DNA from: Aliivibrio fischeri ES114
GTDB taxonomy: Bacteria; Pseudomonadota; Gammaproteobacteria; Enterobacterales; Vibrionaceae
Assembly (NCBI RefSeq): GCF_000011805.1
Contig: NC_006841.2
Length of the DNA: 32,000 nucleotides
Reading direction: 5' to 3' (one strand)
Positions within the stretch are counted from its first letter, which is position 1. Every line of letters starts with the position of its first letter. This document shows positions 5,149 through 30,036 of this stretch, in pieces. The notes beneath the pieces were generated by a model. The model had not been told where the DNA came from. It ran no database searches and saw only the letters and a list, made by a program, of their open reading frames with translations. The position numbers and the translations under genes are program-made.

Positions 5149-5176
5149 CAATAATATTAAATGGAGAAATAATAAC

Positions 5177-6475: not shown

Positions 6476-6578
6476 ATCTTTATAGTTTGGTTTTTAAAAA
6501 TTTTAAAAAAATAGTTGAATACGGATTTTTATCATTTGTATTCATTGTTGTGATAACAATATAAAAAAGAGAAAGTAG

Positions 6579-10388: not shown

Positions 10389-10557
10389 CATGTTCTTTGT
10401 GAAAGATATTTCCTTGTTTCAAATATAGTTAGCTTGTATTCATATATTCATAAATTAATGTACTTTTGTGCCTTTTTATTTTATTTTTTGCACCCTAGCC
10501 AAAGAATATAGCTATGGCGATAAAAATAATTATAAGTTAATTCAATGGACAAAAATT

Positions 10558-11808
10558 ATGGATTATAAAAACCTAACGGTACAAAAGAAAATTGCTACTG
10601 TTTTTTCTGTTATTGGTTTGGTAATGGTGGCATTTGCTCTGTTCCTTTTACAAGAATTAAATAAAGTAGAAGCAGAAGTAATTAACTTTACTGACTCTAC
10701 AGTACCGAGTGTGTTGTCTGCAGAAGAATTATATTTTGAAATGAACGCATATCGTCGAAATCAATATGCAGCATTAAATTATGAAACAAAAGATGCATTA
10801 GGCTTTTTAACTATTCTGTCGAAGCAAGAAAATGATATCAAAGCGGAGCTTGCAGCGTATGAAGCGACGGTTATTACTGAACATGAACGCCGTATCTTTG
10901 ATCGTGTTAAAAATAGTTGGAAAACCTATACGACTCAACTTAAGGATTTTAATAGTTTAGTTAGTAATCAAGAAATCAAACAAGCACAGAAAGAGTTAGT
11001 TAATTCATTTATTTTATTTGAAAATGTAGGGGCTGCATTAGATGGGTTAGTGCAAATCAATATAGGATTTGTTGCGAATAACCGAACAGCGATTATGCAT
11101 AGTGTTGATAATGTAACCACTGCAACAAAAGTGTCATTTAGTGCATTAATTGTATTTATGATTTTCGTAACTTTCTTCTTAGCTCGTCAAATTTGCCGCC
11201 CACTACATTTGGTTGTTGAGCAATCTAAAGCGATCGCAGCTGGGGATTTAACCTTTGAACTTCGTCGTGAAGAGATTGGTAATGATGAATTAGGCGCATT
11301 AGCTGATGCGAATATCGAAATGCAGTATCAATTGCGAACTTTAATTGAGAATACAATTTCAGCGGTAACTCAACTTTCAGTAGAAGTGAAAGAAATGAAT
11401 GACAGTTCAGAAAAACCGTTTAGTGATATGACAACGTCTTCTGATATTACGGTTGTTGCGGCTGCAATTGACGATATAAAAACAGCTATTGATGAACCTA
11501 AAAGAGAGTCAATTAAGCTAAATAGTATAGTTGAAATTATGGGCAGTATTGCTGAAGAAACCCATGCATTTGCTGCGAATGTAGCGAATGAGACTTCTAA
11601 TTTGGATAAACAAAATGATCGTTTTGAGATGATGGTGACTGAAGCTCATGCTCTTGCTAGTCATACTCAATTATCGACGAAAAAAGCAGTGACGTTCATA
11701 GAATCATTGCAAGAAAATATGACCTATAAAAACATTGAGCAATCGAGAATAAAATTATCTCAATTAGCAAATACACTACAAACATTTTTATCTTATTTTA
11801 AAGTGTAA
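10558..11808 (+). CDS. MCP paralog with intact sensor, TM2 and HAMP but a truncated, degenerate signalling domain (possibly decaying or non-canonical)
   Basis: From ATG 10558 (MDYKNLTVQKK, parallel to [11 protein letters not shown] of the two downstream MCPs) it is collinear without gaps through residue about 300. It is then 125 aa shorter. The hairpin tip reads IAEETHAFAANVANETSNLDKQNDRFEMMVTEAHALA instead of [37 protein letters not shown]. The ORF-track extension to GTG 10468 has no counterpart in the paralogs. Confidence 0.7.
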   Translation: MDYKNLTVQKKIATVFSVIGLVMVAFALFLLQELNKVEAEVINFTDSTVPSVLSAEELYFEMNAYRRNQYAALNYETKDALGFLTILSKQENDIKAELAAYEATVITEHERRIFDRVKNSWKTYTTQLKDFNSLVSNQEIKQAQKELVNSFILFENVGAALDGLVQINIGFVANNRTAIMHSVDNVTTATKVSFSALIVFMIFVTFFLARQICRPLHLVVEQSKAIAAGDLTFELRREEIGNDELGALADANIEMQYQLRTLIENTISAVTQLSVEVKEMNDSSEKPFSDMTTSSDITVVAAAIDDIKTAIDEPKRESIKLNSIVEIMGSIAEETHAFAANVANETSNLDKQNDRFEMMVTEAHALASHTQLSTKKAVTFIESLQENMTYKNIEQSRIKLSQLANTLQTFLSYFKV

Positions 11809-11963
11809 TTTTTAAACGCTATTTATATTTTCCATAATAAATTATTGCTCTAAGCTCAAGTTAAAAAATAAATTAATTTATATAAACTTTAATGTCATTT
11901 TTCAGGCGATATAAATTTGACGGTTGAGCTTATTAAAAATGAATTTAACATGGTGTTATCAAA

Positions 11964-12011
11964 AAATAAGTAATTTACAGCAATAAATTTTGTCGAATTA
12001 CTTATTTTTTT
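11964..12011 (+). terminator. Terminator-like hairpin in the MCP1-MCP2 spacer
   Basis: Perfect 12-bp stem AAATAAGTAATT / AATTACTTATTT with a 21-nt loop, followed by a T-run. It lies about 155 nt downstream of the MCP1 stop. Confidence 0.45.
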
Positions 12012-12084
12012 ACATTCGTAAAATTAGCAAAGGTTTCCGTTTCTTATGTAGTTACAAACGTTTAATTTAATTAACTTTTTTTAA

Positions 12085-12232
12085 ATTATAAAACTGTGTG
12101 ACTTTTAGATAATTTTATTTTACTTTCTCGCTTATCTACAATTTACGTTTGTAGGTGAGTTAATTCGTTAGCTCAAAATAACAATGCTCATGGAACGAGT
12201 AAAAAGAATAAATTATAAGGTTGTAAAATTAC
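12085..12232 (+). promoter_or_regulatory. Conserved 148-bp leader/promoter region of MCP2 (copy A)
   Basis: Aligns without indels to 14177..14324 (118 of 148 identical by hand count). Blocks such as ATTATAAAAC-GTGTGACTTTT and TGCTCATGGAACGAGT..AGAATAA.TTATAAGGTTGTAAAA are shared. Confidence 0.6.
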
Positions 12233-13864
12233 ATGAGTTACAAAAATTTAGCAGTACAAAAGAAAATTGCAGTTGTCTTTTCTGCCATTGGCGTGGTAAT
12301 GGTTACGTTTGCTTTTTTCCTATTACAAGAATTAAATAAAGTAGAGTCTGAAGTTATTAACTTTACAGATTCTACTGTCCCAAGTGTATTGTCAGTTGAG
12401 GCAATGTATTTTGAAATGTCCGTACTACGTCGTAGTCAATATGCATCATTAACATATAAAGAATATGACTCTGGTTTAGAGGCTTTGTTTAAGCGCCAGA
12501 ATACAACTTTAGCGAATATCAAAAACATGTTAGCTAGCTACGATGCAACAGTTGCAGGAGCAGAAGAACGAAGAGTTTTTGATGCAGTACTGGCATCATG
12601 GAAGGCTTATTCAAATCTTTTTCGTGATTTTCCTCAATTAATTAAAGATCGTGAACTTGATAAAGCTCATGCGATTTTAGTTAATTCGTTAGATGATTTT
12701 AATGGTGTTGGCGATGCAATGGATGGATTAGTTGATATTAACCTTGGTTTTGTTAGTAATAACCGTACTTCCATTATGAGTAGCGTTGATAGCGTAACAT
12801 TAGCAACAAAAGTATCGTTTAGTGCATTAATCGCATTTATGATCTTTATTACTTTCTTTTTAGCTCGTCAGATTTGTCGCCCATTAAACTTAGTGGTTGA
12901 ACAGTCTAAAGCGATTGCTGCAGGTGATTTAACGTTTGAACTTCGTCGTAGCGAGATTGGTAATGATGAGTTAGGTGCGCTAGCGGATACTAACATTGAA
13001 ATGCAGCATCAATTACGAATTCTAATTGAAGATACGATTTCTGCTGTTACTCAACTTTCAGCAGCGGTTGAAGAGATGAGTGCAATCTCTGAGCAATCTT
13101 CACGTGGTATGCAACAACAACAATCAGACATCACAATGGTTGCAGCTGCAATGGAAGAGATGAAGGCAACGGTTGCAGAAGTGGCAAACAACACTGAAAC
13201 AGCATCAACGTCTGCTCTAGAAGCGTCAGAAGAAGCGAAGCAAGGTAACCAAGACGTTCAATCTAATATTGAGCAAATTCAGATTGTTTCTCGTGATATC
13301 GAACAAGCAGGAGAATTGGTTGAAGAGTTAGAACGCGAATCAAATAACATCAGCGTGGTTGTTGAAGTTATTCGTGGTATTGCTGATCAAACGAACTTAT
13401 TAGCATTGAACGCAGCGATTGAAGCGGCACGTGCTGGCGAACAAGGTCGTGGTTTCGCGGTTGTTGCCGATGAAGTTCGTTCTCTTGCTGGTCGTACTCA
13501 ATCATCAACAAGTGAAATCGTTGAAATCATTGAGAAGTTACAAGCAAGTGCTGCACACGCTAAATCAGCGACAGATCAAAGTTGTTCTAAGATCCGTGTT
13601 TGTGTAGAGCAAAGTGTTCAAACGGGTAACTCAATTCAAATGATTGAAGAAACCATGATGAAAGTAACTGACACGAGCATTCAAATTGCAAGCGCATGTA
13701 GCCAACAAGATTCTGTAACAGAAGAACTTGGTCGCAATATTCAAAGCATGAGTCTATCGGCAAGTGAAGTTGCACTGGGTGCAGAGCAAACGGCTCAATC
13801 AAGTGTTGAGTTAGCGCAGTTAGCAAATAAATTACAAACTTCTTTATCGTACTTTAAAGTTTAA
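12233..13864 (+). CDS. Methyl-accepting chemotaxis protein (four-helix-bundle-type periplasmic sensor, HAMP, MCP signalling domain)
   Basis: 543 aa: TM1, a roughly 155-aa helical periplasmic domain, TM2, HAMP ([22 protein letters not shown]), and the canonical signalling hairpin [42 protein letters not shown]. Confidence 0.95.
12809..13815. repeat. 1,007-bp direct repeat copy 1 (TM2-HAMP-signalling part of MCP2)
   Basis: Aligns with 14895..15901 at a constant offset of 2086 with no indels. I counted about 27 nucleotide differences (about 97% identity). The encoded 335 aa are identical. Confidence 0.9.
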
Positions 13865-13887
13865 TTTTTGATTGAATTTAAAGAATA

Positions 13888-13917
13888 AAGTGATGGCAAA
13901 TGCCATCACTTTTTTTA
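13888..13917 (+). terminator. Rho-independent terminator after MCP2
   Basis: GTGATGGC-AAAT-GCCATCAC hairpin followed by TTTTTTT, about 25 nt after the stop. Confidence 0.8.
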
Positions 13918-14176
13918 TAAGTCCATAGGAAATCAACAATAATAGAAAGATTGTATAAAAAAATCTTTTAAAAAAAGCATTGGCGCTTTGTTTGTTGGCG
14001 GTATATTTTTGACCTTTGAGCCATAGTGAAAGTATTTTCACATTTTTTTATTGAATTTAGGTAAATTGTTACTTTTATCAATAACACCTTATTTACCTTT
14101 TTTACCATTTCAAAAATGCAATGGTTTGCTTGTTGTGGGATTTAATAACTTATTAATTTATTTAACCTTTATTGCA

Positions 14177-14324
14177 ATTATAAAACCGTGTGACTTTTTA
14201 CGTATTTTATTTTATTTTCTCGCCTCTCTGCCGATAACGTTCGCAGATGAGCTAATTTATTAGTTCAAAACAGTAATGCTCATGGAACGAGTGAGAAGAA
14301 TAATTTATAAGGTTGTAAAACATC
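14177..14324 (+). promoter_or_regulatory. Conserved 148-bp leader/promoter region of MCP3 (copy B), containing a sigma-28-like -10 element
   Basis: Collinear with 12085..12232. Only this copy contains GCCGATAA (14230..14237), the -10 consensus of FliA/sigma-28 promoters. No TAAAG-like -35 is seen at the expected spacing. Confidence 0.45.
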
Positions 14325-15950
14325 ATGAGTTACAAAAATTTAGCAGTACAAAAGAAAATTGCAGTTGTCTTTTCTGCCATTGGTTTGGTGATGATTGCGT
14401 TTGCTTTTTTCCTATTACAAGAATTAAATAAAGTAGAGTCAGAAGTTATTAACTTTACTGATTCTACTGTTCCAAGTGTGTTATCGGTGGAAGACGTATA
14501 TTTTGAAATGAACGCGTATCGTCGTAACCAATATGCAGCATTAACATATCAAGAAAAAGATTTACCAAACTTATTAGCTCTTTTGTCAAAACAAGAGGCA
14601 CAAATTCAATCTGATCTTGATGCATATGAAGCAACGGTTGCGAGTGCTGATGAACGTCGTGTTTTTGAGCGTGTTGCAAATAGCTGGCAGAAATACTTAA
14701 CTCAACTAAAAGAATTTAATGGTTTAGTTGCGAATAAAAAGGCTAAGTTAGCTCAACAAGAGCTTGTGGATTCTTTTTCTCAGTTTGAAGAAGTAGGCAC
14801 TGCTATGGATGGTCTACTTCAGGCTAACCTTGTTTTTGTTAGTAACAATAGAAAATCAATCATGGGCAGCGTTAATAACGTAACGTTGGCGACTAAAGTA
14901 TCTTTTAGTGCATTAATCGCATTTATGATCTTTATTACTTTCTTCTTAGCTCGTCAGATTTGTCGTCCATTAAACTTAGTGGTTGAACAGTCTAAAGCGA
15001 TTGCTGCAGGTGATTTAACGTTTGAACTTCGTCGTAGCGAGATTGGCAATGATGAGTTAGGTGCGCTAGCGGACACTAACATTGAAATGCAGCATCAATT
15101 ACGAATTCTAATTGAAGATACGATTTCTGCTGTTACTCAACTTTCAGCTGCGGTTGAAGAGATGAGTGCGATTTCTGAGCAATCTTCACGTGGTATGCAA
15201 CAACAACAATCAGACATCACAATGGTTGCAGCTGCAATGGAAGAGATGAAGGCAACGGTTGCAGAAGTGGCAAACAACACTGAAACAGCCTCAACGTCTG
15301 CTCTAGAAGCGTCAGAAGAAGCGAAGCAGGGTAACCAAGACGTTCAATCTAATATTGAGCAAATTCAGATTGTTTCTCGTGATATCGAACAAGCTGGTGA
15401 ATTGGTTGAAGAGTTAGAGCGCGAATCAAATAATATCAGCGTGGTTGTTGAAGTTATTCGTGGTATTGCTGATCAAACGAACTTATTAGCATTGAATGCA
15501 GCGATTGAAGCGGCACGTGCTGGTGAACAAGGTCGTGGTTTCGCGGTTGTAGCCGATGAAGTTCGTTCTCTTGCTGGTCGTACTCAATCATCAACAAGTG
15601 AAATCGTTGAAATCATTGAGAAGTTACAAGCAAGTGCTGCACACGCTAAATCAGCGACAGATCAAAGTTGTTCTAAGATCCGTGTTTGTGTAGAGCAAAG
15701 TGTTCAAACGGGTAATTCAATTCAAATGATTGAAGAAACCATGATGAAAGTGACGGACACGAGCATTCAAATTGCAAGTGCATGTAGCCAGCAAGATTCA
15801 GTAACAGAAGAACTTGGTCGCAATATTCAAAGTATGAGCCTATCGGCAAGTGAAGTTGCACTAGGCGCAGAGCAAACGGCTCAATCAAGTGTTGAGTTAG
15901 CACAATTGGCTTCAACTCTTCAGCAGTCTCTATCGCGCTTTAAAGTGTAA
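14325..15950 (+). CDS. Methyl-accepting chemotaxis protein (paralog of MCP2 with a different periplasmic sensor core)
   Basis: 541 aa with the same architecture. Residues 191 to about 525 are identical to MCP2. The periplasmic core (about aa 55-185) is strongly diverged. Confidence 0.95.
14895..15901. repeat. 1,007-bp direct repeat copy 2 (TM2-HAMP-signalling part of MCP3)
   Basis: See copy 1; offset 2086, no indels. Confidence 0.9.
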
Positions 15951-20244: not shown

Positions 20245-21585
20245 CTATAAAGGAAAGGTAAGCAAAAAAGTGGTTTTCTTTCCTTCTGATTGAACGGAAA
20301 TATCGCCGTTATGTAGATTCACAATTGAACGCACAATAGTTAAGCCTAAGCCTGCACCTGTGCTACTTGAATGTTGTCTGGATTTGTCTGCTCGATAAAA
20401 GCGTTCAAAAATAAAAGGTAAATCTTTATCAGGAATCTTATCTCCTATATTCGAGATAGATAACACGATGTTACTGTGGTTTTCCTCAATCTTAATTTGA
20501 ATATTGCTATCAGGTGCAGAGTGACGTATAGCGTTAGAGAGTAGATTATTTGCTACGCGTTGTATCATGGATTTATCACCCCAAAGAGATCCGTTCCCTG
20601 ATAGATGAATTGTTACTCCTGTTTCTTCAGACACAATGCTGTAGTACTCAATAATAGGGGCGAAGAGTTGCTCTAAATCTAATTGCATATTGTCTTTTAG
20701 TAATAAGTCATTTTCAGATTTAGCAAGATACAAGGTATCGTTAATTGTTTTGTTAATGCGTTCTAATTCTTCTAAGTTTGAAGATAAGATCTCTTGATAT
20801 TCATGAGGTGTTCTTGGTTGCGATAAGGTGACATGAGTCTGAGTCATAATATTTGAGAGTGGCGTTTTTAATTCATGAGCGATATCAGATGAAAAATCAC
20901 TGAGTCGTTCAAACCCAAGTTCTAATCGATCAAGCATCTGGTTTTGTATTTTTGCAAGTTCAACCAACTCGTTGGGTAAGTGTTCATCAGACAATCGAAT
21001 ACTTAGCTTATTTGGCTGAACTTGTTTGATGCGATCTTGTAAATATTGCAGAGGTTTAAACCCCATATTTACGATGATAAAGCTGCAAATGAAAGAGAGT
21101 AGGCTCGCGATACTAATTGACCATATTAAAATGCCTTTTAGTCTTTTATTGAACTCGATGTGATGATCAATATTAATACCAATAAGCAGTCCGGTATAAT
21201 TATTCTCGTTTTCTAGTGGGTAGTAGAGTGTTCTAAATGTACTTCCTGCATAAGTCCATTCGTTGATTTTTTTTGATTGTTTAAAGGCGCTGTCATTTGG
21301 AATTACATTGGTATTTTGTGTCAATGTGCCATTATCATTGGCAATCCAAATGTTAATACCGCGACTTTTTAAGGAAGCAAAAATTTCACTGCTAGTTATG
21401 CCTTCATTTTCTAATAAGACGAAAATGGAAGTCCGATTGGCGTTAATTAAACGGAGATCTTCTTCATAAAAATGGGATTGGACTAGGTATTGAATGGCAA
21501 AACCTAAGCCAATAAAGACAAATACAGAGGTAGAGAAAAACATTAATGTCAGTTTTAGTTTCATTGATAAGTAATGTTTTTTCAT
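20245..21585 (-). CDS. Sensor histidine kinase of the heavy-metal (CusS/CopS-type) subfamily
   Basis: 446 aa: two TM helices flanking a roughly 120-aa periplasmic domain, HAMP, H-box FSSDIAHELKTPL, and N/G boxes (LLSNAIRHS, GAGLGLTIV). It starts 4 nt after its response-regulator gene. Confidence 0.85.
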   Translation of the reverse strand: MKKHYLSMKLKLTLMFFSTSVFVFIGLGFAIQYLVQSHFYEEDLRLINANRTSIFVLLENEGITSSEIFASLKSRGINIWIANDNGTLTQNTNVIPNDSAFKQSKKINEWTYAGSTFRTLYYPLENENNYTGLLIGINIDHHIEFNKRLKGILIWSISIASLLSFICSFIIVNMGFKPLQYLQDRIKQVQPNKLSIRLSDEHLPNELVELAKIQNQMLDRLELGFERLSDFSSDIAHELKTPLSNIMTQTHVTLSQPRTPHEYQEILSSNLEELERINKTINDTLYLAKSENDLLLKDNMQLDLEQLFAPIIEYYSIVSEETGVTIHLSGNGSLWGDKSMIQRVANNLLSNAIRHSAPDSNIQIKIEENHSNIVLSISNIGDKIPDKDLPFIFERFYRADKSRQHSSSTGAGLGLTIVRSIVNLHNGDISVQSEGKKTTFLLTFPL

Positions 21586-21589
21586 ATAA

Positions 21590-22270
21590 CTAGCACTCGT
21601 CCATTTTATAACCCATACCGCGAACAGTATGAATTAGTGGGGTGTCGTAGGGTTTATCTATTTTAGAACGAAGTCGTTTTACCGCGACATCAATGACATT
21701 GGTATCACTATCAAAGTTCATGTCCCAAATCAGGGAGGCGATTGTTGTTCTTGATAATACTTCCCCTTGTTTACGCATAAATAACTCAAGTAATGAAAAC
21801 TCTTTTGCAGTAAGGGTAATATTATCTTGGTTTCTTGTGGCGGTTCGTTTTAACAGATCCAATTTTAAATCATGCAAAACTAACTCATTTGATGATGGTT
21901 GCGAAATCACTGATTTTGCTCTGAGGGCATTTTCAACACGAGCTTTTAGTTCAGCAAAAGCAAAGGGTTTAATTAGGTAATCATTTGCACCTAATTCAAA
22001 CCCTTTCACTCTATCATCAATTTGATCTTTGGCGGTGAGCATAATGATTGGCGTATCATTTTCACAATTCCGTAGTGTTTGTAGAATTTGCCAACCATTT
22101 AGCTTAGGTAACATGACATCTAAGATGATTAAGTCGTATTGATTGGTGGTTGCGTTATATAAACCATCAGCACCATCTTGTGATAGATCAACAGTATAAC
22201 CTGACTCTGTTAATCCCTTTTTTAGGTACTCTCCTGTTTTTGTTTCATCTTCGATAATAAGTAGTTTCAT
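21590..22270 (-). CDS. OmpR-family response regulator of the CusR/CopR (heavy-metal) subfamily
   Basis: Receiver domain (MKLLIIEDE, DLIILDVMLP, KPF) plus a winged-helix output domain (LTAKEFSLLELFMR ... VHTVRGMGY). Start chosen at ATG 22270 (purine-rich AGAAAGAAG upstream) rather than the ORF-track 22303. Confidence 0.85.
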   Translation of the reverse strand: MKLLIIEDETKTGEYLKKGLTESGYTVDLSQDGADGLYNATTNQYDLIILDVMLPKLNGWQILQTLRNCENDTPIIMLTAKDQIDDRVKGFELGANDYLIKPFAFAELKARVENALRAKSVISQPSSNELVLHDLKLDLLKRTATRNQDNITLTAKEFSLLELFMRKQGEVLSRTTIASLIWDMNFDSDTNVIDVAVKRLRSKIDKPYDTPLIHTVRGMGYKMDEC

Positions 22271-22373
22271 ATCATTACTTCTTTCTGCATGGAGAATAAT
22301 CAATGGTTATCAATACAATATAGACGTATCGTTCTTAGATGACACGTTGATTTAAAGAAAATAACATAAAAAA

Positions 22374-22754
22374 TTAGTCATTTGAGTTGCGTTCTAAATA
22401 ATGATATTTCGCATGAATTAATCCAGTGTATTGTATTTGTCCTTGCATGTTCATTGTTTCTTGAACGGTAATATAACTATCGTCATCTAAGCCAATACTT
22501 TGCGTTGTTGTTGATTCAAATGATGCGACTTTTAGTGCTTTTTTCAGTTCTTTCGGTGTACTTTCATCTAATTGATTTAATTTAGTTAACGCTTGATTAT
22601 AAGCCGCTTGTTTTGTTGATACGCTATCAGTGTGAATTACCGCACTGTTACTTTTACTAATGTAGTTACCGCTTGTGATTACTGGGTTTGCCATTGCGCT
22701 TGAGCTTGCAACAATAATTAGAGTAGTTAAAGCAAGTGATTTGAATGATTTCAT
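22374..22754 (-). CDS. Small secreted/periplasmic protein of unknown function (resembles Vibrio DUF3316 proteins from memory)
   Basis: Start at ATG 22754, preceded by a strong RBS AAGGAG at 6-nt spacing. Signal peptide MKSFKSLALTTLIIVASSSAMA; mature part about 100 aa. A CusR-box-like palindrome lies about 80 bp upstream. Confidence 0.65.
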   Translation of the reverse strand: MKSFKSLALTTLIIVASSSAMANPVITSGNYISKSNSAVIHTDSVSTKQAAYNQALTKLNQLDESTPKELKKALKVASFESTTTQSIGLDDDSYITVQETMNMQGQIQYTGLIHAKYHYLERNSND

Positions 22755-22833
22755 AATAGACTCCTTAATGAGCTTTTCTTGTTTAAGTAGGTTCATCATA
22801 ATCAAGTGATGGTAACAACAAAGGGTCTATTGA

Positions 22834-22948: not shown

Positions 22949-23614
22949 GTGTCCCGTATTTTAGTTGTTGATGACGACATTGAGCTATGCAATTTGTTGC
23001 AAGAAGTATTACAAGATGAAGGCTATGATGTCGATTGCGTACATTGTGGCGAAAGTGCTCTGGAATTTATTCAAACGCACTCCATAGATCTCGTTTTGCT
23101 TGATGTAATGCTACCAAAGCTAGATGGTTACCAAGTGGCTCGACGTATATGTCAGCGTTTTGCTACTCCTATCCTTATGCTTACGGCTTTAGGCGATGAA
23201 GCGTCTATGCTTGATGGATTGCAAGCGGGGGCGGATCATTTCATTGCGAAACCTTTTAATGTGCCAGAACTACTTGCAAGGATCACTGCGATTTTACGTC
23301 GTGTAGGGCTTGAACGTCAGCGTCAAAGCTATGTAGGTGCAACGGAAGATTTAGCAGAACAATTTTTACGTCTACCTTTAACTGAAACGGAATCAGAATT
23401 ACTGCAATACTTAATTAAAAATACGGACGTTGTTGTATCTAAAGCTGATTTACAAACCAATATTTTGAAAAAAGAGTTATGTCCATTTGACCGTAATTTG
23501 GATATGCATATTAGTAATATCCGCCGTAAATTATTGCAATCAGGCTTATCAAAGCAGCATATTAAAACGGTTCGTGGGCGTGGTTATAGTTTTATTAAAG
23601 TGGTTAATGGATAG
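22949..23614 (+). CDS. OmpR-family response regulator, CpxR-like
   Basis: 221 aa with a GTG start. Receiver domain (ILVVDDD, LVLLDVMLP, AKPF). The output domain has the CpxR-like block LCPFDRNLDMHISNIRRKL (E. coli CpxR: LTPFDRAIDMHISNLRRKL) and VRGRGY. Confidence 0.8.
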   Translation: MSRILVVDDDIELCNLLQEVLQDEGYDVDCVHCGESALEFIQTHSIDLVLLDVMLPKLDGYQVARRICQRFATPILMLTALGDEASMLDGLQAGADHFIAKPFNVPELLARITAILRRVGLERQRQSYVGATEDLAEQFLRLPLTETESELLQYLIKNTDVVVSKADLQTNILKKELCPFDRNLDMHISNIRRKLLQSGLSKQHIKTVRGRGYSFIKVVNG

Positions 23615-23619
23615 GGGGA

Positions 23620-25008
23620 ATGACGTTGCTTCGATGGTTTGAGTCGTGTCCCTCTTTTATTTGCAAATATAAAAATGGCCTAGCATTTCGTTTATTTAGT
23701 GCTTTTGCTGTGAGTCTATTTTTAATTATCTCTTTGCAAAGCTTGGCCGAAATTGCGTTGATGAAATCTATGCTCCGTATTCCTAGCTCTATTCAGACTA
23801 AGATGCTGGATTTGGCCGAGCAGGCAAATATCTTGATCGAAGAAGGGGATATGGATGAGTTAGCGGATTGGGCGAGTGCACAAGAGTACTATTTATTTGT
23901 TTTGGACCAAAATAACCGCCCAATTACACATCGCGATATGCATCCTCATTTTGAGTTTAAACTGAAATTTTTACGCCCTTTAAATACGCAATTGGATAAT
24001 GAAGTTAATCAACCCATTATTGGTATTCCGTTAGAAAACGGATTAACTATTGTGATTCAAATGCCGTATCAATATCACCCAGCTAATAATTTTCCTCTTT
24101 ATTTTGGGATTATTAAGTTAGTTATTTCTGTATTGATATTAGGGTTATTCTCTTGGGTTATTGCACGATATTTACAGCGACCTTTAGATAAGTTGAGAGA
24201 GGTTAGTCATAAGCTTGCTCAAGGTGATTTTGACGTAAAGGTGAGTGACGAAATTGGAAATTCGGTTCGAGAGTTCAGTGAATTAGCTCATGATTTTGAT
24301 AACATGACGCATGAAATTCACTCGCTAGCAGAAAAGCAACAGCGACTTATTCGTGATGTTTCGCATGAGTTAAGAACTCCATTAGCTCGGCATAATCTTG
24401 CGCTTCATTTATTAAAAAAGAAGGTTGCTCCTGATTATATTCACTTAGTTAACCGTTTGGAAAATGAATCTAATGAGATGAATGATTTAGTTGGAGAAAT
24501 CTTAGAATTTAGTCGATTAGAGAATTCTCGCTATAACACTAAACTAGAGCCTGTATTACTTGAAAGCTGTATCTCCGCACAAGTGATTCAAAGCCGCATG
24601 GATTTAGGACCGACACAATGTTTGGATTTTATCTGCTCTAAAGAAGCTCCAGTTGTTCATGCTGAACCTCGCTTAGTAACTCGAGTGGTTAAAAACTTAA
24701 TCACCAATGCGATTAAGTACGCTGGCGATAATGCATATATTCAAGTGGTTATCACAGAATATCGAAGCCGTGAGAAAAACCATGTGGCAATTATTGTTGA
24801 AGATAATGGCCCAGGCATACCAGAAGATCAGCTCTTAAATATATTCTCCCCCTTTACACGCTTAGAGTCGGCAAGAGATAAGCAATCAGGTGGTTATGGA
24901 CTCGGTTTGGCTATTGTAAAAGAGTCTATGTTTGTTATGAAAGGAAGTGTTGTTGCTGATAATCGTAAAGAAGGTGGATTAAGAGTGATGTTGTTGTTTC
25001 CAGTTTAA
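23620..25008 (+). CDS. Sensor histidine kinase, CpxA-like (periplasmic domain, HAMP, HisKA, HATPase)
   Basis: 462 aa; RBS GGGGGA. Two TM helices around a roughly 115-aa periplasmic domain, HAMP (RPLDKLREVSHKLAQGDFDVKV), H-box DVSHELRTPLAR, and N/G boxes (ITNAIKYA, DNGPGIP, GGYGLGLAIV). Confidence 0.85.
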   Translation: MTLLRWFESCPSFICKYKNGLAFRLFSAFAVSLFLIISLQSLAEIALMKSMLRIPSSIQTKMLDLAEQANILIEEGDMDELADWASAQEYYLFVLDQNNRPITHRDMHPHFEFKLKFLRPLNTQLDNEVNQPIIGIPLENGLTIVIQMPYQYHPANNFPLYFGIIKLVISVLILGLFSWVIARYLQRPLDKLREVSHKLAQGDFDVKVSDEIGNSVREFSELAHDFDNMTHEIHSLAEKQQRLIRDVSHELRTPLARHNLALHLLKKKVAPDYIHLVNRLENESNEMNDLVGEILEFSRLENSRYNTKLEPVLLESCISAQVIQSRMDLGPTQCLDFICSKEAPVVHAEPRLVTRVVKNLITNAIKYAGDNAYIQVVITEYRSREKNHVAIIVEDNGPGIPEDQLLNIFSPFTRLESARDKQSGGYGLGLAIVKESMFVMKGSVVADNRKEGGLRVMLLFPV

Positions 25009-25034: not shown

Positions 25035-25075
25035 AAAGGCTAATTCTATAAAATTTAGGATTAGCCTTTTTTGTT
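25035..25075 (+). terminator. Rho-independent terminator after the CpxA-like kinase gene
   Basis: AAAGGCTAAT ... ATTAGCCTTT 10-bp stem followed by TTTTTG. Confidence 0.75.
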
Positions 25076-25222: not shown

Positions 25223-26275
25223 GTGTATATTTTAGGTAAAATTTTGTTTAATAAATTATTAATTATCTTATGCGGTGTTATTTTTTGTAATATGGCCGTG
25301 GCGTCTTCTAATATAAAGACATCATCAGAAATTTCATTATCAACTTCTTCTATTTATGACTTTTTGGAACGTGATGAATCTTGGTTTGCGATTAAAGATA
25401 TTGCAGAGAAGAAAAACATTAACTCTGTAACTATCTACTTTCAAGGAAAGATTGATAATAACGTAACTCAAAGTCAAGTTGATGATATCAATGCGTTATT
25501 AACAACAAAGATGCAAGAATCAGGCTTATTGGTTCGTGATTGTCTTGAGTGTAATAAGACTCGACTTCATTTAACTAAAACCTCTATTAAATATCAACGT
25601 GGACTTGAAAGTAATAAAGAGTTGCGTTTACTGGGTCAAGAAATTCAATCTGACGCATTTTTAATGTGGCGAATGGGTTTAAGTGATTCCTCTCAAAATA
25701 TTACTCTTTCTTTAGTTCAGGCCGAAAATAATGAAACGATTTGGGCTGATGGTTATTTAATGACTAAAAAAGAAGAAGAAATTAAGAAGGAATTGAACCC
25801 ACACCAGTTTGGCTTCGCTATGAGCTATATTGATTTAAGTGGTGATGCCAAAGTTAATGGAGAAAGTCATGGTACTTTTAGTAACGTGACTGATTTTAGT
25901 CTTCGTTATTACACTCGTCATTTACCTAGTGAACGTTTGCATTTTGCTGTTATTGCAAATTACTTCCAAAATACGGATAGAAATAACTTATTTAATGTTG
26001 AAGGTGGTGGTATTGAAGGGCGTGTTTTATACACTTTAACTCCTTCTTGGCCGTCTCCGAGTTTATATATTGGTGCTGGTTCTCAATTCGTTGAAGGAAA
26101 GAACAGTTTCGCGATGCGTTCAGGTGTTGAATTTGCCTATATGAAGAATGGTTTTTTTGATATCGGTGTCGCTTATATTGAAAAGAACTCTTTCAAGAGT
26201 AAGCACCAAGGTGATGTTGTGACTGGCAAGTTTGGCGGTGCGGCTGTTGATTTTACTATTGGTTTTCGTTTCTAA
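25223..26275 (+). CDS. Secreted protein: N-terminal alpha/beta domain of the FlgO/LpoB/CsgG-like pattern plus a C-terminal outer-membrane beta-barrel-like region
   Basis: ORF from GTG 25223. A TTG at 25244 with AGGT 6 nt upstream would give a cleaner signal peptide (MFNKLLIILCGVIFCNMAVA/SS). The C-terminal third shows alternating hydrophobic beta-strand periodicity and ends in GFRF, with the terminal Phe typical of OMPs. Confidence 0.5.
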   Translation: MYILGKILFNKLLIILCGVIFCNMAVASSNIKTSSEISLSTSSIYDFLERDESWFAIKDIAEKKNINSVTIYFQGKIDNNVTQSQVDDINALLTTKMQESGLLVRDCLECNKTRLHLTKTSIKYQRGLESNKELRLLGQEIQSDAFLMWRMGLSDSSQNITLSLVQAENNETIWADGYLMTKKEEEIKKELNPHQFGFAMSYIDLSGDAKVNGESHGTFSNVTDFSLRYYTRHLPSERLHFAVIANYFQNTDRNNLFNVEGGGIEGRVLYTLTPSWPSPSLYIGAGSQFVEGKNSFAMRSGVEFAYMKNGFFDIGVAYIEKNSFKSKHQGDVVTGKFGGAAVDFTIGFRF

Positions 26276-26284
26276 GGGGCTGTT

Positions 26285-26827
26285 ATGAAAAAGCGTATTT
26301 TATTTGTTTCAGCCATTGCTATTCAATGCATGATGACTTCAATGGCATTGGCTAATGATATTACATCTCAGCAAACAGCAGAGAATATTCCTTTTGAAAA
26401 GAATCAATTATCTGTTCGATTGAATGGGGAACAATATCGTTCGGCGTTTCAAATTGACTTGTCTGATCCAAATTTGATTTTGACTATTGATACTGATCTT
26501 ATTCCTGAGGAAGACATTGATGCTTTGTTACCTGAATTAAATGATTCAGAAGAAGCTCAAGTTTCAGCATTTAATGAGCCTAAATCATTAGCTTTACGTA
26601 TAGAAGCAAAAGAAAAAGCGGCTAATGGTGATTTTGTAGGGGCCCTTGCCTTATTAAATGAAGCTGAAGCACTAACAGAAAACCCTGCAAAAGTACTGTC
26701 AATGAAAGGTAGTGTTCACTATAAGCTGAACCAAGTTGAATTGGCGATAGTGTCATGGAAAAAAGCATTAGAACTTGATCCATCACTTACAGAAGTCTCT
26801 GACATTATTCAATGGTTGGAAAAATAA
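26285..26827 (+). CDS. Periplasmic TPR-repeat protein
   Basis: 180 aa; RBS AAGGGG. Signal peptide ending ALA/ND. The C-terminal half reads as two TPR motifs (GDFVGALALLNEAEAL ... GSVHYKLNQVELAIVSWKKALELDPS). It starts 9 nt after the previous gene. Confidence 0.65.
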   Translation: MKKRILFVSAIAIQCMMTSMALANDITSQQTAENIPFEKNQLSVRLNGEQYRSAFQIDLSDPNLILTIDTDLIPEEDIDALLPELNDSEEAQVSAFNEPKSLALRIEAKEKAANGDFVGALALLNEAEALTENPAKVLSMKGSVHYKLNQVELAIVSWKKALELDPSLTEVSDIIQWLEK

Positions 26828-28551
26828 GAATGAAATCGTGTATTCGTTTTGTATGCATTAGCTTTTTATTTATTACCTCAATTGTTTTCGCGCAAACGTC
26901 GTTGCAGTTGGACCAAATGTCTTTTACTGCGGAATTAGAGCAACGACTTAATAGCGATATTGAACGAATTGCAGGTAAGAATATACATGTGCTTTCTATT
27001 CAGGCTGAGTTTATTCGTGAGGAGGTTGATGCTTCAACATCTAAACCGATAGTTGCTAAACAAAAACCAGAAGTAAAAAACGTTATTATGGATGATGCTC
27101 CTGAGCTTCCAGGCTTAGCAGGCATGTCTGCTTTCAATAAGAATACTGCTGCAAAAGTGTCGACAGTAAGCGAGGAAGTAGAGCAGCAAGAAGATGCGTT
27201 AGATAATGAACAAGTATCTAAAACGGAGAAAATGATCCGTTCTTTATCAACTACATTGTTATTAGATAATAGTGTGGATAAAGATACAGAGTTGCTTATT
27301 CGCAATCTGTTACTTGAGAAGTTGGAATACAACCCAATGAGAGGGGATCGTCTTGAGATTATTCGGATGGATATGGCTCCTGTATCAGAAATAACGGGAT
27401 CATCTATCGCACACTATTGGTGGGTGTTGGTTTTATTATTACTATTATTAGTTATTGGTTACTTACTTGCACGTAATCGTAAAGTATCTACAAAAGAAGT
27501 GGGTGTTAATGAAGTAAGTTCATTGCCTCCAATGCCTGAGCAATTGTTAGATACGAAAAAAGGCGAACTGAAAGCGTGTCGACAACAATTGGTTAAGTAC
27601 AGTTTGAGTGAACCTCAAAAAGTAGATGCGGTACTTCGTCGTTTAAGTTTGAATGAACAAAATATCCCTATGTTCGCTTCTTGTTATCAGGAACTAGGAC
27701 GTTCGTTGTTTACTTCAATGTTTCCTGCGTTAAATGAACATATTCCAGCGTATTTGAAGTATTTAGAAACGAACCCTGCTGATTATGATCGCTTGGTGAG
27801 AGATTTAACGGATTTACAATATTTATTAGTTGATGCGGTTTCTTCTGAGCAATTTGAACATCGCAGTCGACCATTTTCGTTTTTAGATAAATTGAGTATT
27901 AATCAAATTCGTTGGGTATTAGATGATGAGCCATTGCGCATTAAAGCATTAGTCTTAAGCCAATTGCCATCAGAAAGCTCAGCTAAGTTCTTATCAACGT
28001 TTACGGCTGAAGAACAAGCATTAATAGCAATAGAGATAGTTCAGTTTGATTCCATGCCAATGGCGACATTTGGTGAGATTGCCTCATCACTTGCTGCTAA
28101 AGCTCAATCGGTACCTGATTTTGAAACTGTAAGAACCGATGGTAATCAAATGTTGATGTCGTTACTTGATGGAATGAATTTACGTCAGCAAAACGATTTG
28201 TTAGATCAGCTAAGAGTGTCTTCGCCAGAAGCATATTTAAATCTACGTAAGGTGTACTACATTTTTGATGACGTGCTTAGAACGCCAACAGTCATTTTAA
28301 GCAATATATTACGCAGTATGAATCCTGAAATTTTAGCATTAGCGTTGATTAATTTAGATGATGAACAAGTCGCAGTCATTCTTTCAGGATTCCCTGAACG
28401 TATGATTGAAATGATTAAAGCTGAAATGGTGCGTTATAAAGATGCGTCGTATGATGAGCAAAACTCAGCAAAACAACAAGTTGTGATGTTAATGCGCCAA
28501 GCTATTGGAAATAAACAATTTACAATGAATGATTTGGAGTCTGTAGCATGA
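26812..28551 (+). CDS. Bitopic inner-membrane protein: miniaturised FliF-like N-terminal part fused to a full-length FliG-like cytoplasmic part
   Basis: The alternative start ATG 26830 (MKSCIRF) gives an N-terminal signal/anchor helix. A second TM lies at aa about 201-220. C-terminal aa about 355-570 are collinear with FliG middle and C-terminal domains (FSFLDKLSINQIRWVLDDEPLRIKALVLSQLP; YYIFDDV in place of MFxFEDL; ILRSMNPEILALALINLDDEQVAVILSGFPERMIEMIKAEM). N-terminal segments match FliF landmarks (ELEQRLNSDIERIAGKNIHV; NPMRGDRLEIIRMDMAP just before the TM; SEPQKVDAVLRRL after it). Confidence 0.7.
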   Translation: MVGKIRMKSCIRFVCISFLFITSIVFAQTSLQLDQMSFTAELEQRLNSDIERIAGKNIHVLSIQAEFIREEVDASTSKPIVAKQKPEVKNVIMDDAPELPGLAGMSAFNKNTAAKVSTVSEEVEQQEDALDNEQVSKTEKMIRSLSTTLLLDNSVDKDTELLIRNLLLEKLEYNPMRGDRLEIIRMDMAPVSEITGSSIAHYWWVLVLLLLLLVIGYLLARNRKVSTKEVGVNEVSSLPPMPEQLLDTKKGELKACRQQLVKYSLSEPQKVDAVLRRLSLNEQNIPMFASCYQELGRSLFTSMFPALNEHIPAYLKYLETNPADYDRLVRDLTDLQYLLVDAVSSEQFEHRSRPFSFLDKLSINQIRWVLDDEPLRIKALVLSQLPSESSAKFLSTFTAEEQALIAIEIVQFDSMPMATFGEIASSLAAKAQSVPDFETVRTDGNQMLMSLLDGMNLRQQNDLLDQLRVSSPEAYLNLRKVYYIFDDVLRTPTVILSNILRSMNPEILALALINLDDEQVAVILSGFPERMIEMIKAEMVRYKDASYDEQNSAKQQVVMLMRQAIGNKQFTMNDLESVA

Positions 28552-29330
28552 TCTCATTCAGTACTATTACCGGCTTATTGATGGCGTTTGGTGTATTAAT
28601 TGGTGCAGTAACAATGAGTACCGATAAATACATGTTATTTGTGAGTTTATCGAGTTTTCTTATTGTGCTTGGTGGAACATTAACTGCGGCGTTAATCAGT
28701 TATTCATACCCACTTATTTTGTCTTCGTTTAAAGGGTTACTTGTTAACTTGCTTGACGAGACAAACGTGACGAAATTTAAGCACGCATCAATCAAAAGAA
28801 CAGTTGAATGGAATCAGATCTTTCGATCAAGCGGCATGTCGGGTTTAGAAAATTCGTTAAATGATAATGAAAAAAATGACCCATTTATCCGTTTAGGTGT
28901 AGAACTTATTGGAACTGGTTATAAAGGTGAAGAGCTTAAAAAATTACTAGATGAAAGTAATCATAGTCAATATAAGCAAGAAATGACGCAAGCTGAGGTC
29001 TTAAACTCAATGGGTACTTATGCACCTGGTTTTGGCATGATTGGTACATTGATTGGTTTGATTATTATGCTTGATAATTTAAATGGTGATATGGCTGCTT
29101 TAGGTAATGGTTTAGCTGTTGCTTTATTGACGACTCTCTATGGCATTTTATTAGCTCAAGTGTTTTTCAAACCCGCAGCAATTCGTATTAGTCGTCGAGT
29201 AAATACCAATTTTGATAATCGTGAAATGCAAATTAATGCGTTTGTATTAATGACAGAAAAACGTCCTGATTTGTACTTACAAGATTCAATGAATGTACAT
29301 TTGCCGTTTAAGAAAAGGTTAGCGTCTTAA
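28548..29330 (+). CDS. Flagellar-type stator A subunit homolog (MotA/PomA family ion channel protein)
   Basis: 260 aa with 2+2 TM helices around a roughly 100-aa cytoplasmic loop. The TM3-TM4 region is near-collinear with remembered Vibrio PomA (APGFGMIGTLIGLIIML ... GLAVALLTTLYGILLAQVFFKPAA). The ATG overlaps the upstream stop (ATGA). Confidence 0.85.
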   Translation: MISFSTITGLLMAFGVLIGAVTMSTDKYMLFVSLSSFLIVLGGTLTAALISYSYPLILSSFKGLLVNLLDETNVTKFKHASIKRTVEWNQIFRSSGMSGLENSLNDNEKNDPFIRLGVELIGTGYKGEELKKLLDESNHSQYKQEMTQAEVLNSMGTYAPGFGMIGTLIGLIIMLDNLNGDMAALGNGLAVALLTTLYGILLAQVFFKPAAIRISRRVNTNFDNREMQINAFVLMTEKRPDLYLQDSMNVHLPFKKRLAS

Positions 29331-29972
29331 ATGAATAGAACAAGACCCAAGGTTGAGTTGAAAGACGATAATGATTGGATGATGACATACAGTGATGCCA
29401 TCACATTATTATTGGCCTTTTTTGTTCTGATTGTTGCTGTTTCTCAAGTGAATGAAGGTAAGTTAGAAGAACTAAAAGATGGATGGGGAAAAGTGGTTGA
29501 TACTGCGGCTCACCTGCCTATGCAAGAGCTAACCGCCGATATTCAGGAGATAGTTGAGCAAAAGAATTTAGATTCTGTCGTGGTCACGGCTGTCACCGAT
29601 GGTATACGAATTGATCTTAATAGTGAAAATTTGTATGACTCAGGTTCAGCATCTTTAAAGCCTGAAGGTAAAGCTCTTATTTCTGAATTTGCAGAAGCGA
29701 TGAAAGAGGTCGATTTAAATGGTCGTTCTATTATCGTTGAAGGGCACAGTGATGATTTACCCATTCATACAAAGCAGTTTGATAGTAATTGGGAGCTTTC
29801 TGGAGCAAGAGCCATAGAAGTGACTAAGCAATTGATCAAATTTAATGTGGATAAATCACAATTAAGAGCGGTGGCGTATGCGGATGCACAACCTCGGGCG
29901 GATAAAGCATTACCGATAGAACAACAGCGTCAATTAAATCGACGTGTTGTGATTTATATTAAAAGAAATTAA
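29331..29972 (+). CDS. Flagellar-type stator B subunit homolog (MotB/PomB family, OmpA-like peptidoglycan-binding domain)
   Basis: 213 aa. Single TM with the conserved channel Asp (WMMTYSDAITLLLAFFVLIV) and a C-terminal OmpA/MotB domain (GHSDDLPI ... NWELSGARA ... NRRVVIYI). It starts immediately after the motA-like stop (TAAATG). Confidence 0.85.
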   Translation: MNRTRPKVELKDDNDWMMTYSDAITLLLAFFVLIVAVSQVNEGKLEELKDGWGKVVDTAAHLPMQELTADIQEIVEQKNLDSVVVTAVTDGIRIDLNSENLYDSGSASLKPEGKALISEFAEAMKEVDLNGRSIIVEGHSDDLPIHTKQFDSNWELSGARAIEVTKQLIKFNVDKSQLRAVAYADAQPRADKALPIEQQRQLNRRVVIYIKRN

Positions 29973-30004: not shown

Positions 30005-30036
30005 AAAGCGCTCTAAATATAGAGCGCTTTTTTTAT
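30005..30036. terminator. Bidirectional rho-independent terminator between the motB-like gene and the convergent molybdoenzyme gene
   Basis: AAAGCGCTCT-AAATAT-AGAGCGCTTT hairpin flanked by an A-rich run on the left and TTTTTTT on the right. Confidence 0.8.

Follow-up and report, generated by a model that had tools for sequence, protein, structure and literature searches.

Whether a rotor-stator module could exist apart from the type III export module is a question of flagellar evolution on which a locus of Aliivibrio fischeri ES114 (contig NC_006841.2) bears. The window analyzed here, by which we mean the whole stretch of 32,000 nucleotides (nt), contains a five-gene cassette in which a FliF-like protein and FliG are encoded as one polypeptide (the fusion), followed by the stator genes motA2 and motB2; no flagellar gene was found in the window besides this cassette. 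Flagella are the only rotors known to be turned through FliG by stators of the MotAB type. The evidence set out below suggests that the fusion supplies the rotor subunit of a rotor-stator machine that is self-contained and independent of the flagellum, a reading to which we assign a probability of roughly 70%.

That FliF-like and FliG sequences succeed each other in a single polypeptide, as the original prediction had read from the translation, is borne out from end to end by sequence profiles and by fold comparison. The best PDB sequence match of a full-length family profile (74 sequences) is the chain of an engineered Vibrio FliF-FliG fusion (8z4d_1; E = 2.4e-54), which is matched in three collinear stretches, namely, FliF 273-594, FliG_N, and FliG_MC. 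The same profile matches PDB chains of FliG at 7e-49, aligns with residues 11-327 of Aquifex aeolicus FliG (3hjl_A) at 2.4e-48, and with residues 224-558 of Salmonella FliF at 1.4e-15, through the second transmembrane segment (TM2) to the C-terminal FliG-binding helix. An AlphaFold (AF2) monomer model of the fusion, with a predicted local distance difference test score (pLDDT) of 85, was compared with solved structures by Foldseek, a check that had been proposed with the prediction. The top match is full-length FliG (3hjl; 2.6e-8, 336 columns, probability 1.0); the FliG matches are followed by about twenty structures of the FliF S-ring, its third ring-building motif (RBM3), or its β-collar (e.g., 8z5v_A, 8z4d_1, 6sd1_A, and 8ftf_A; TM-score 0.45-0.61 normalised to the target), all with a probability of 1.00. 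The FliF-like half comprises the following features.

26812-28551, + strand: open reading frame of the FliF(RBM3-collar-TM2-C-terminal helix)-FliG(N-M-C) fusion; 579 amino acids (aa) as listed, 573 aa from a start at 26830; probably VF_A0185
26830-26892, + strand: N-terminal hydrophobic segment (residues 7-27); from the Kyte-Doolittle maximum (residues 7-15) and the 19-residue window
26911-27027, + strand: first half of RBM3, a helix and long beta-hairpin strands (residues ~34-72); AF2 helix to residue 54, strand 59-71, pLDDT >94
27028-27222, + strand: variable insert splitting RBM3 (residues 73-137), equivalent to the beta-collar loop; pLDDT <50 at 77-97 and 105-132
27106-27117, + strand: LPGL motif inside the insert, aligned to VPGA of FliF within GGVPGALSNQ
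27223-27372, + strand: second half of RBM3, strand-helix-strand (residues 138-187); AF2 strand 138-152, helix 157-170, strand 180-186, pLDDT 95-98
27340-27348, + strand: RGD motif in the second half of RBM3
27406-27477, + strand: TM2 equivalent (residues ~199-222), then the positively charged ARNRK; from hydropathy, an AF2 helix at 200-221, and the alignment with TM2 of FliF
27535-27654, + strand: helices equivalent to the C-terminal FliG-binding region of FliF (residues 242-281); from the profile alignment to the C-termini of Vibrio and Salmonella FliF
27607-27651, + strand: SEPQKVDAVLRRLSL within the FliG-binding helices; from the profile alignment

The true start of the fusion is probably M7 (26830), 18 nt downstream of the listed start, because this methionine is invariant among homologues, its codon lies 3 nt past the stop of the upstream gene, and several of the NCBI gene models for the fusion have 572-573 aa. 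The names given to the protein by NCBI are "FliG C-terminal domain-containing protein" or "hypothetical"; proteins with 95-99% identity occur in many strains of Aliivibrio (Vibrio) fischeri.

The kinship with FliF is visible only through family profiles or a structure model; a single-sequence Pfam search with residues 1-233 of the fusion yields no match even at an E-value of 10. A profile of the N-terminal part (residues 1-225 from 38 family sequences), searched against 177,635 PDB sequences, finds FliF of Vibrio at 2.8e-6 and 8.3e-6, FliF of Salmonella at 4.8e-5 (collinear over residues 225-478), and two further FliF entries at 5e-5 and 8e-5; the next-best family and only match outside FliF is SpoIIIAG, a FliF-like ring protein (0.0057). 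In the AF2 model, the periplasmic half consists of a helix, long strand(s), a disordered insert, again long strand(s), a helix, and a strand, the same split-RBM pattern as in RBM3 of FliF and in SpoIIIAG. The original prediction had allowed that the resemblance to FliF might prove to be chance, with no RBM fold; instead, the N-terminal profile finds FliF, and such a fold is predicted.

What the fusion retains of the periplasmic part of FliF is RBM3 with a shortened insert; RBM1 and RBM2 are missing. All FliF alignments begin at FliF residue ~224, the Pfam family YscJ_FliF (RBM1 and RBM2, the SctJ-homology region) has no match in the fusion even at an E-value of 10, and the N-terminal hydrophobic segment is separated from the RBM3 helix by only ~30 residues, which leaves no room for either motif. 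The earlier view that most of the RBM2/RBM3 mass had been lost is therefore correct for RBM2 but not for RBM3, which is retained; the losses concern RBM1 and RBM2. The helix ELEQRLNSDIERI..., which had been assigned to an RBM2 segment, aligns instead to the first helix of RBM3, and the N-terminal profile places the first half of RBM3 on Salmonella FliF ~231-270 (VESRIQRRIEAIL...VHAQVTAQLDF). In flagella, RBM1 and RBM2 represent the SctJ-like part of FliF and surround the type III export gate as an inner ring (MS-ring structures, e.g., 6sd1-6sd5; PMC11739650).

The second half of RBM3 aligns in both profiles with RLSVAVVVN...QIEDLTREAMGFSDKRGDTLNVVNSPF of FliF, with its helix and last strand on QIEDLTREAMGFSDKRGDTLNVVNSPF. 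The proposed pairing of MRGDRLEIIRMDM with DKRGDTLNVVNSPF around the RGD motif holds, and the motif itself is well conserved (R177 in 64, G178 in 70, and D179 in 71 of the 74 family members). Nearly invariant is also the LPGL motif of the otherwise variable insert, with L99 and P100 present in 71, G101 in 70, and L102 in 62 of the 74 members. Hydropathy analysis identifies two hydrophobic segments (residues ~9-31 and ~197-224), the second followed by ARNRK, which would place residues ~28-198 in the periplasm and ~355 residues in the cytoplasm; the periplasmic part thus has the ~170 aa that had been estimated. The first segment ends in VFA, followed by QT; to judge from the sequence, it could be a signal peptide that is cleaved off instead of a retained first transmembrane segment (TM1). 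The second was correctly recognized as the equivalent of TM2, on which hydropathy, the AF2 helix, and the alignment with FliF agree. The matching of SEPQKVDAVLRRLSL with the C-terminal FliG-binding peptide of FliF (DNDPRVVALVIRQWM) is upheld by the full-length profile, whose consensus lrqelvnlllgnpelvaevlrswlee pairs with VLKAVRALVANEPELAAQVVKNWMND of Vibrio FliF. Among the 74 members, P268 of the FliG-binding helices is found in 60, and position 278 is occupied by W in 31 and by L in 21.

The similarity of the cytoplasmic half to FliG is detectable already in the single sequence. Pfam recognizes both FliG_M (residues 365-435; 1.2e-18) and FliG_C (residues 466-567; 1.3e-16) above their gathering scores, and phmmer matches residues 353-563 with FliG of Thermotoga maritima (1lkv; 7e-9), which confirms the collinearity with these two domains that had been predicted. 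The half is composed as follows.

27655-27867, + strand: FliG_N-like helical domain (residues ~282-352); from the profile alignment from Aquifex FliG residue 11 and the 336 columns of the Foldseek match
27868-28140, + strand: FliG_M (residues 353-443); Pfam FliG_M, with EHPQ reduced to DEPL
28141-28548, + strand: FliG_C (residues 444-579); Pfam FliG_C
28393-28434, + strand: torque helix PERMIEMIKAEMVR in FliG_C; from the alignment with FliG

Motifs of the two proteins pair in the same order: PFSF marks the start of FliG_M, DDEPL corresponds to EHPQ, TDG to the Gly-Gly linker, YYIFDD to MFVFED, and PERMIEMIKAEM to the torque helix of FliG; the pairings of DDEPL, YYIFDD, and the torque helix had already been part of the prediction. 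Judging from the alignments and the model, all three FliG domains appear to be represented. The sequence signal of FliG_N is weak by itself, with an E-value of 3.7 for this stretch in the comparison with 8z4d_1 and a Pfam FliG_N match (1.8e-5) that falls over the M region. An identity of the C-terminal part with MgtE_N only, named at the outset as an alternative, is ruled out by the presence of FliG_C and the torque helix, in which 68 of the 74 members have R or K at the position of R530.

In the family alignment, the best-kept feature of FliG is the residue that contacts the stator, and the FliM-binding motif is not kept. The position of R530, the equivalent of R281 in Escherichia coli, is occupied by R in 47 of the 74 members and by K in 21; E538, the equivalent of D289, is E in 34 and D in 5 (acidic in 39); and F485, a part of the MFxF motif, is retained in 67. 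By comparison, E373 (65 of 74) is the only conserved residue among the EHPQ positions. Because EHPQ is not conserved, because fliM and fliN are absent from the cassette, and because the fusion reaches only 55.7 bits with the fliG equivalog of NCBIfam (cutoff, 226.7 bits), we consider it a FliG homologue and not an orthologous switch protein. Among the PDB chains of FliG, its FliG part is closer to those of Thermotoga (7e-9) and Aquifex (9e-6) than to Vibrio FliG (6e-5), which argues against a recent copy of the fliG gene of the host.

What gives the finding its weight is that the fusion belongs to a conserved cassette with a stator of its own, which the original prediction had not remarked on. 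Immediately downstream of the fusion are the genes of this stator, the first of which overlaps with its start the stop codon of the fusion (ATGA).

28548-29330, + strand: motA2 (VF_A0186), flagellar-clade stator A subunit of the MotA/PomA type, 260 aa; Pfam MotA_ExbB 2.6e-23
29331-29972, + strand: motB2 (VF_A0187), stator B subunit, 213 aa; Pfam MotB_plug 9.6e-14, OmpA 6.6e-18

The two genes are identified as VF_A0186 and VF_A0187 because published primers for motA2 and motB2 of V. fischeri match here (motA2_campbellF exactly at 28571-28594 and the motB2 primer with two mismatches at 29490). MotA2 belongs with the flagellar stators: in NCBIfam, it matches flagellar families at 1e-36 to 4e-42 and the TolQ and ExbB families only at 0.003-0.06. 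The best NCBIfam models of the two proteins are the second-stator families PRK09109 (MotA2) and MotD PRK09038 (MotB2). The stator is nevertheless a divergent member, because all equivalog cutoffs of NCBIfam are missed (144 vs. 237 bits). The closest solved relatives of MotA2 are MotA of Clostridium sporogenes (4e-27) and PomA (5e-23), i.e., it is nearer to clostridial MotA than to PomA; together with the ranking of the fusion among PDB chains, this similarity ranking speaks against a recent duplication of fliG or pomA of the host.

The residues that matter for a motor are largely in place. MotA2 possesses R93 and E101 in FRSSGMSGLE (i, i+8), a pair that is mostly conserved in the MotA homologues of other cassettes and has the spacing of R90 and E98 in MotA of E. 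coli. MotB2 has a plug, an OmpA-like domain for the binding of peptidoglycan, and, in its transmembrane segment, the channel aspartate D22, which is conserved in all eight cassette MotBs that were aligned. All eight are short (213-238 aa), and in MotB2 only ~40 residues lie between the plug and the OmpA-like domain. Canonical MotB and PomB have ~310 aa; with so short a MotB2, the stator would extend a smaller distance into the periplasm.

The two genes upstream of the fusion encode secreted proteins, and two terminator-like hairpins bracket exactly the five genes of the cassette, which look from their arrangement like a co-transcribed operon of X, TPR protein, fusion, motA2, and motB2.

25035-25069, + strand: terminator-like hairpin between a response-regulator/histidine-kinase pair and the cassette, likely the 5' boundary of the operon (consensus scan only)
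25223-26275, + strand: cassette gene 1 (X), secreted protein of 350 aa with an N-terminal alpha/beta domain and a C-terminal beta-barrel ending in ...TIGFRF; by gene order probably VF_A0183
26285-26827, + strand: cassette gene 2, secreted tetratricopeptide repeat (TPR) protein of 180 aa; Pfam TPR_11/TPR_2/TPR_1 at residues 135-168; probably VF_A0184
30005-30030, both strands: bidirectional terminator-like hairpin after motB2, likely the 3' boundary of the operon (consensus scan only)

X has no match in Pfam, and the profile of its family finds no PDB sequence. An AF2 model from a shallow alignment is of low confidence (pLDDT 61) and comprises an alpha/beta domain followed by about ten strands; its Foldseek matches to TolB and to small outer-membrane barrels (NspA, OmpA, OmpW, and OmpX), together with the terminal aromatic residue, suggest an outer-membrane barrel with a periplasmic TolB-N-like domain. 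A CxEC motif (DCxEC; C107/E109/C110) is invariant in all 11 aligned homologues, including very distant ones, and might form a disulfide or bind a metal in the periplasmic domain. Two distant members of these 11 match the Pfam family FlgO (PF17680) over ~43 residues at 0.006 and 0.04, i.e., below the 22.6-bit cutoff, which is suggestive at most; X of the window shows no such match. Several distant homologues of the TPR protein possess a lipobox.

The cassette is widespread. When 1.84 billion cluster representatives (50%-identity clusters) were searched exhaustively with HMMER, at least 187 of them proved to belong to the fusion family at E ≤ 1e-30. Of the best 150, most are 445-777 aa long, with a match that runs from the periplasmic part to FliG_C inclusive; most of the cluster members are metagenomic. 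A word-indexed homologue search with the 74-sequence alignment returned the close Vibrio set only, and a locus search with a family alignment reached only Aliivibrio, two Vibrio species, and a metagenome-assembled genome (MAG) of Shewanellaceae. The neighborhoods of eight distant members and four relatives among Vibrionaceae and Shewanellaceae were examined (the contig of L004 was too short to be counted), and 11 of these 12 informative loci contain the full set of an X-like protein (~310-390 aa), TPR protein, fusion, MotA, and MotB, in varying order. The cassette-bearing loci include L001, L002 (where the contig ends in motB), L003, L005, L013, L014, L016, L009, and L010; GC contents range from 37% to 67% where the cassette recurs and from 35% to 67% over the loci, and no flagellar genes were found in any of the examined neighborhoods. 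Across the cassette loci, X, TPR protein, MotA, and MotB are mutually homologous; blastp matches X of the window with its distant counterparts in L013 (3e-37), L002 (4e-30), L003 (5e-24), and L005 (2e-8), and the TPR protein with that of L001 (5e-7).

The ratios of nonsynonymous to synonymous substitutions (dN/dS) from three Aliivibrio comparisons are 0.08-0.10 for X, 0.11-0.16 for the TPR protein, 0.09-0.19 for the fusion, and 0.005-0.04 for motA2. All five genes fall within 0.005-0.19 and are thus under purifying selection, not a decaying remnant.

If the cassette encodes a motor, its parts suggest how it might work. The RBM3 parts of the fusion would oligomerize into an S-ring-like ring with a short beta-collar at the periplasmic face of the inner membrane, as do RBM3 of FliF and SpoIIIAG, and hold beneath it a ring of covalently attached FliG. 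That a single chain can serve as a rotor is plausible, because engineered FliF-FliG fusions assemble rings (8z4d; PMC11481574). Stator units of the composition MotA2(5)B2(2), anchored to the peptidoglycan by the OmpA-like domain of MotB2 and gated by the plug, would let ions pass D22 and push on the torque helix of FliG through charge pairs of the flagellar type (R93 and E101 of MotA2 against E538 and R530 of the fusion). The ring would turn in one direction only, without switch, export apparatus, rod, hook, or filament: a switch is not expected because EHPQ is degenerate and FliM and FliN are absent, and secretion is not expected because RBM1, RBM2, and the genes of an export gate are lacking. 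More speculatively, the collar with its LPGL loop could be coupled via the TPR protein and X to a process in the envelope or at the surface. Stator scaffolds are known from flagella (MotX and PflB), and the TPR protein might alternatively play such a role. The more specific view is that the cassette encodes a rotary machine that stands on its own, is driven by ions in one direction, spans the envelope, and drives an outer-membrane or surface process, and that it represents either a surviving relative of the pre-flagellar rotor-stator core or an ancient exaptation of it; this view is tentative, and we rate its chances at somewhat below even. If it is such a machine, one of these two origins would follow from the wide and patchy distribution of the family and from the fact that it is about equally far from every canonical FliG.

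Several observations weigh against this interpretation. Conservation of the torque helix is incomplete: K264, D288, and R297 of E. coli have no kept counterparts among the 74 members, and an acidic residue at the position of D289 is present in only about half of the family. In some of the cassette MotAs, the position of the arginine is occupied by Q, H, G, or S. The assignment of X to the outer membrane is based on a model with a pLDDT of 61 and a C-terminal motif. P0061 (L015), the most divergent member examined, has no MotAB nearby. The soft-agar assays of the stator mutants (PMC3948606) leave room for a flagellar role under other conditions. Finally, the genes beyond the five differ between loci, and the output of the machine is therefore not readable from its genomic context.

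Some details of these loci deserve mention in their own right. P0061 is a protein of 771 aa (L015, 10001-13709, on a 2.1-Mb contig) with only a faint match to FliG_M; its gene lies next to that of a KAP-family NTPase, with no MotA/MotB, TPR, or X gene nearby, and could represent a sub-family of its own that works with another partner. The gene of a BBP2_2 beta-barrel porin comes after the cassette in two of the distant loci (L003, 10614-16819; L016, 15406-16539), and L003 contains also polysaccharide-export genes (Wza-like with Poly_export/SLBB, Wzz/GNVR-kinase, and Wzy_C). Possibly, these neighbors hint at a link to surface polysaccharides; they do not recur in the other loci. Genes of NHL-repeat proteins are found in L005, a 1330-aa AsmA-family protein is encoded near the cassette of Vibrio penaeicida (L010, 11442-15434), and a mucinase lipoprotein of the StcE/TagA type (M66) near that of the Shewanellaceae MAG (L009, 11822-14185); the latter two are related to envelope or surface but are not conserved neighbors. 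Regulators flank the cassette in several loci: in the window, the genes of an OmpR-type response regulator (221 aa) and a histidine kinase with HK_sensor and HAMP domains (462 aa) lie directly upstream (22949-25008, + strand), L010 has a response regulator with GGDEF domain, and L001 and L014 have response regulators with HATPase domain plus PAS kinases. The cassette may therefore be under signal control.

Among the competing explanations, the one that survives best makes the stator a non-rotary energizer, comparable to TolQR/ExbBD or AglRQS, which would pull on or remodel a partner, and the fusion a static or low-order membrane scaffold or an adaptor that would hand on force or a conformational signal through the inner membrane to the TPR and outer-membrane proteins. 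A parts list of inner-membrane motor, periplasmic TPR protein or lipoprotein, and TolB-N-like outer-membrane barrel indeed resembles Tol-Pal and Ton, and incompletely conserved charges in the torque helix would be compatible with a rotor that does not rotate. However, what was retained of FliF is precisely a ring-building motif with a collar insert, whose solved homologues (FliF RBM3 and SpoIIIAG) all form large rings; the best-conserved residue of FliG_C is the one that contacts MotA in flagella; and the distance of MotA2 from TolQ and ExbB documented above places it among the flagellar stators. We regard a non-rotary energizer as unlikely.

Lower still do we place the possibility that the cassette provides the polar flagellum with an accessory or alternative rotor-stator set for high load, a different ion, or life with the host. 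The fusion would then be inserted into the MS/C-ring or take the place of a part of it, and MotA2B2 would be a second stator. Such a stator exists in Pseudomonas (MotCD). V. fischeri is flagellated, all parts in question are homologues from the flagellar clade, and second-stator families are the best NCBIfam models of MotA2 and MotB2. When RscS is overexpressed, motA2 and motB2 fall ~2-fold together with some flagellar genes (PMC10804989), which also indicates that they are expressed. Yet insertion mutants of motA2 and motB2 show wild-type motility in soft agar, and the genes are not activated by FlrA and lie outside its regulon (Brennan et al., PMC3948606); with motA2B2 dispensable for swimming and no other flagellar gene in the window, the locus is non-flagellar, as had been predicted. 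Moreover, the fusion has a membrane anchor and a ring-building motif of its own but neither RBM1 and RBM2 for an export gate nor EHPQ for FliM, Vibrio FliG is not its closest relative, and the five genes are conserved as a unit, apart from flagellar genes, in genomes that differ greatly.

It is highly improbable that the cassette is either the decaying relic of another flagellar system now lost (e.g., lateral flagella) or an anti-phage system of the Zorya type, with no rotor function in either case: although remnant flagellar genes are known from many genomes (PMC12199754) and MotB2 matches ZorB models (8e-20), and MotA2 weakly ZorA (0.0016), through the shared MotAB fold, a pseudogene or relic is largely ruled out by the dN/dS of all five intact reading frames, by the conserved motifs of a family of at least 187 clusters, and by a cassette composition that is constant in unrelated genomes, and a Zorya defense by a MotA2 of 260 aa without ZorA tail and by three other proteins without any match in PADLOC, be it to ZorC, ZorD, or another system.

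Elsewhere in the window, an aerobactin-type siderophore cluster (709-8753) encodes two IucA/IucC synthetases, a GNAT acetyltransferase, a lysine/ornithine N-monooxygenase, and a TonB-dependent receptor. It is followed at 10468-15950 by three consecutive chemoreceptor genes of the 4HB_MCP type, the first of which (10468-11808, 446 aa) encodes a sensor and a HAMP domain but no MCPsignal domain at E ≤ 1e-5, perhaps owing to truncation or divergence. On the strand opposite the cassette (20245-22805, - strand), the genes of another two-component pair, a CusS-like kinase and an OmpR-type regulator, lie beside that of a DUF3316 protein.

A flagellum-independent rotor-stator machine would be of interest in several respects. 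There is a substantial chance that the cassette represents a new class of envelope machine. In 8 million searchable papers and preprints (subscription-only literature lay outside the search), we found no description of the fusion family or the cassette; with regard to non-flagellar FliG/MotAB systems, natural FliF-FliG fusions, FliG paralogues, and the locus tags VF_A0183-0185, only a fusion in Chlamydia and the motility and transcriptome papers on motA2B2 came to light. If our reading is true, the cassette keeps only the torque-generating core (the S-ring part of FliF, FliG, MotA, and MotB) and adds periplasmic and outer-membrane partners of its own, and the fusion is a natural, minimal, single-chain rotor of ~570 residues on which ring assembly, FliF-FliG stoichiometry, and stator coupling can be studied free of export gate, switch, and rod. 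The system is directly testable, as V. fischeri is genetically tractable and motA2 and motB2 mutants exist.

The closest comparison is with the core of the flagellar MS- and C-rings. The fusion is collinear with FliF ~225-560 and, it appears, with all three domains of FliG, and it adjoins a MotA and a MotB with transmembrane aspartate, plug, and peptidoglycan-binding domain, with a charge pair of the R281/E98 type maintained. By contrast, the FliF-like part and FliG form a single polypeptide, the EHPQ motif is not conserved, and the cassette is not needed for swimming and comes without FliM/FliN, rod, hook, filament, and export genes. Moreover, the collar insert is shorter (~65 aa vs. ~110 aa in Salmonella FliF), and the fusion offers no seat for FliPQR/FlhAB because RBM1 and RBM2 are absent.

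Other non-flagellar machines of the MotAB family (Tol-Pal [TolQRA-TolB-Pal], ExbBD-TonB, AglRQS-Glt, GldLM, and ZorAB) share with the cassette an ion-driven, 5:2-type motor in the inner membrane and partners in the periplasm and outer membrane, and the fold of X recalls TolB-N plus a small outer-membrane barrel. None of them, however, drives a homologue of FliG or FliF. MotA2B2 falls into the flagellar clade and not into the Tol/Exb clade, and the Zor matches in PADLOC are merely generic. SpoIIIAG (5wc3) resembles the fusion in that an insert divides its RBM and builds a beta-collar-like ring, but it has neither a FliG part nor a stator, is specific to the sporulation of Firmicutes, and shows only marginal sequence similarity.

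Fusions of FliF and FliG have precedents both in the laboratory and in nature. Engineered fusions are known from Salmonella, where they assemble rings. Also in the engineered FliFG of Vibrio alginolyticus (8z4d/8z4g; PMC11481574), both proteins reside in one chain and ring assembly is known. Such constructs contain full-length FliF (RBM1-3) and operate within a complete flagellar system, whereas the fusion described here is natural, N-terminally shortened, and non-flagellar. The closest known natural case is the FliF-FliG fusion of Chlamydiaceae (Bergeron 2016, PMC4768692), in which a short FliF is likewise joined to a cytoplasmic part resembling FliG, with two hydrophobic segments and in a setting that lacks a flagellum, but which is built differently. 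With ~330 aa, it comprises an RBM2-like region and an unassigned RBM but no SpoIIIAG-like domain (RBM3), and of FliG it has FliG_M alone; MotAB does not accompany it, and an interaction with the injectisome has been proposed (PMC4768692). The protein of A. fischeri, on the other hand, has RBM3 with a collar insert, the M and C domains and apparently the N domain of FliG, a torque helix, and a dedicated stator.

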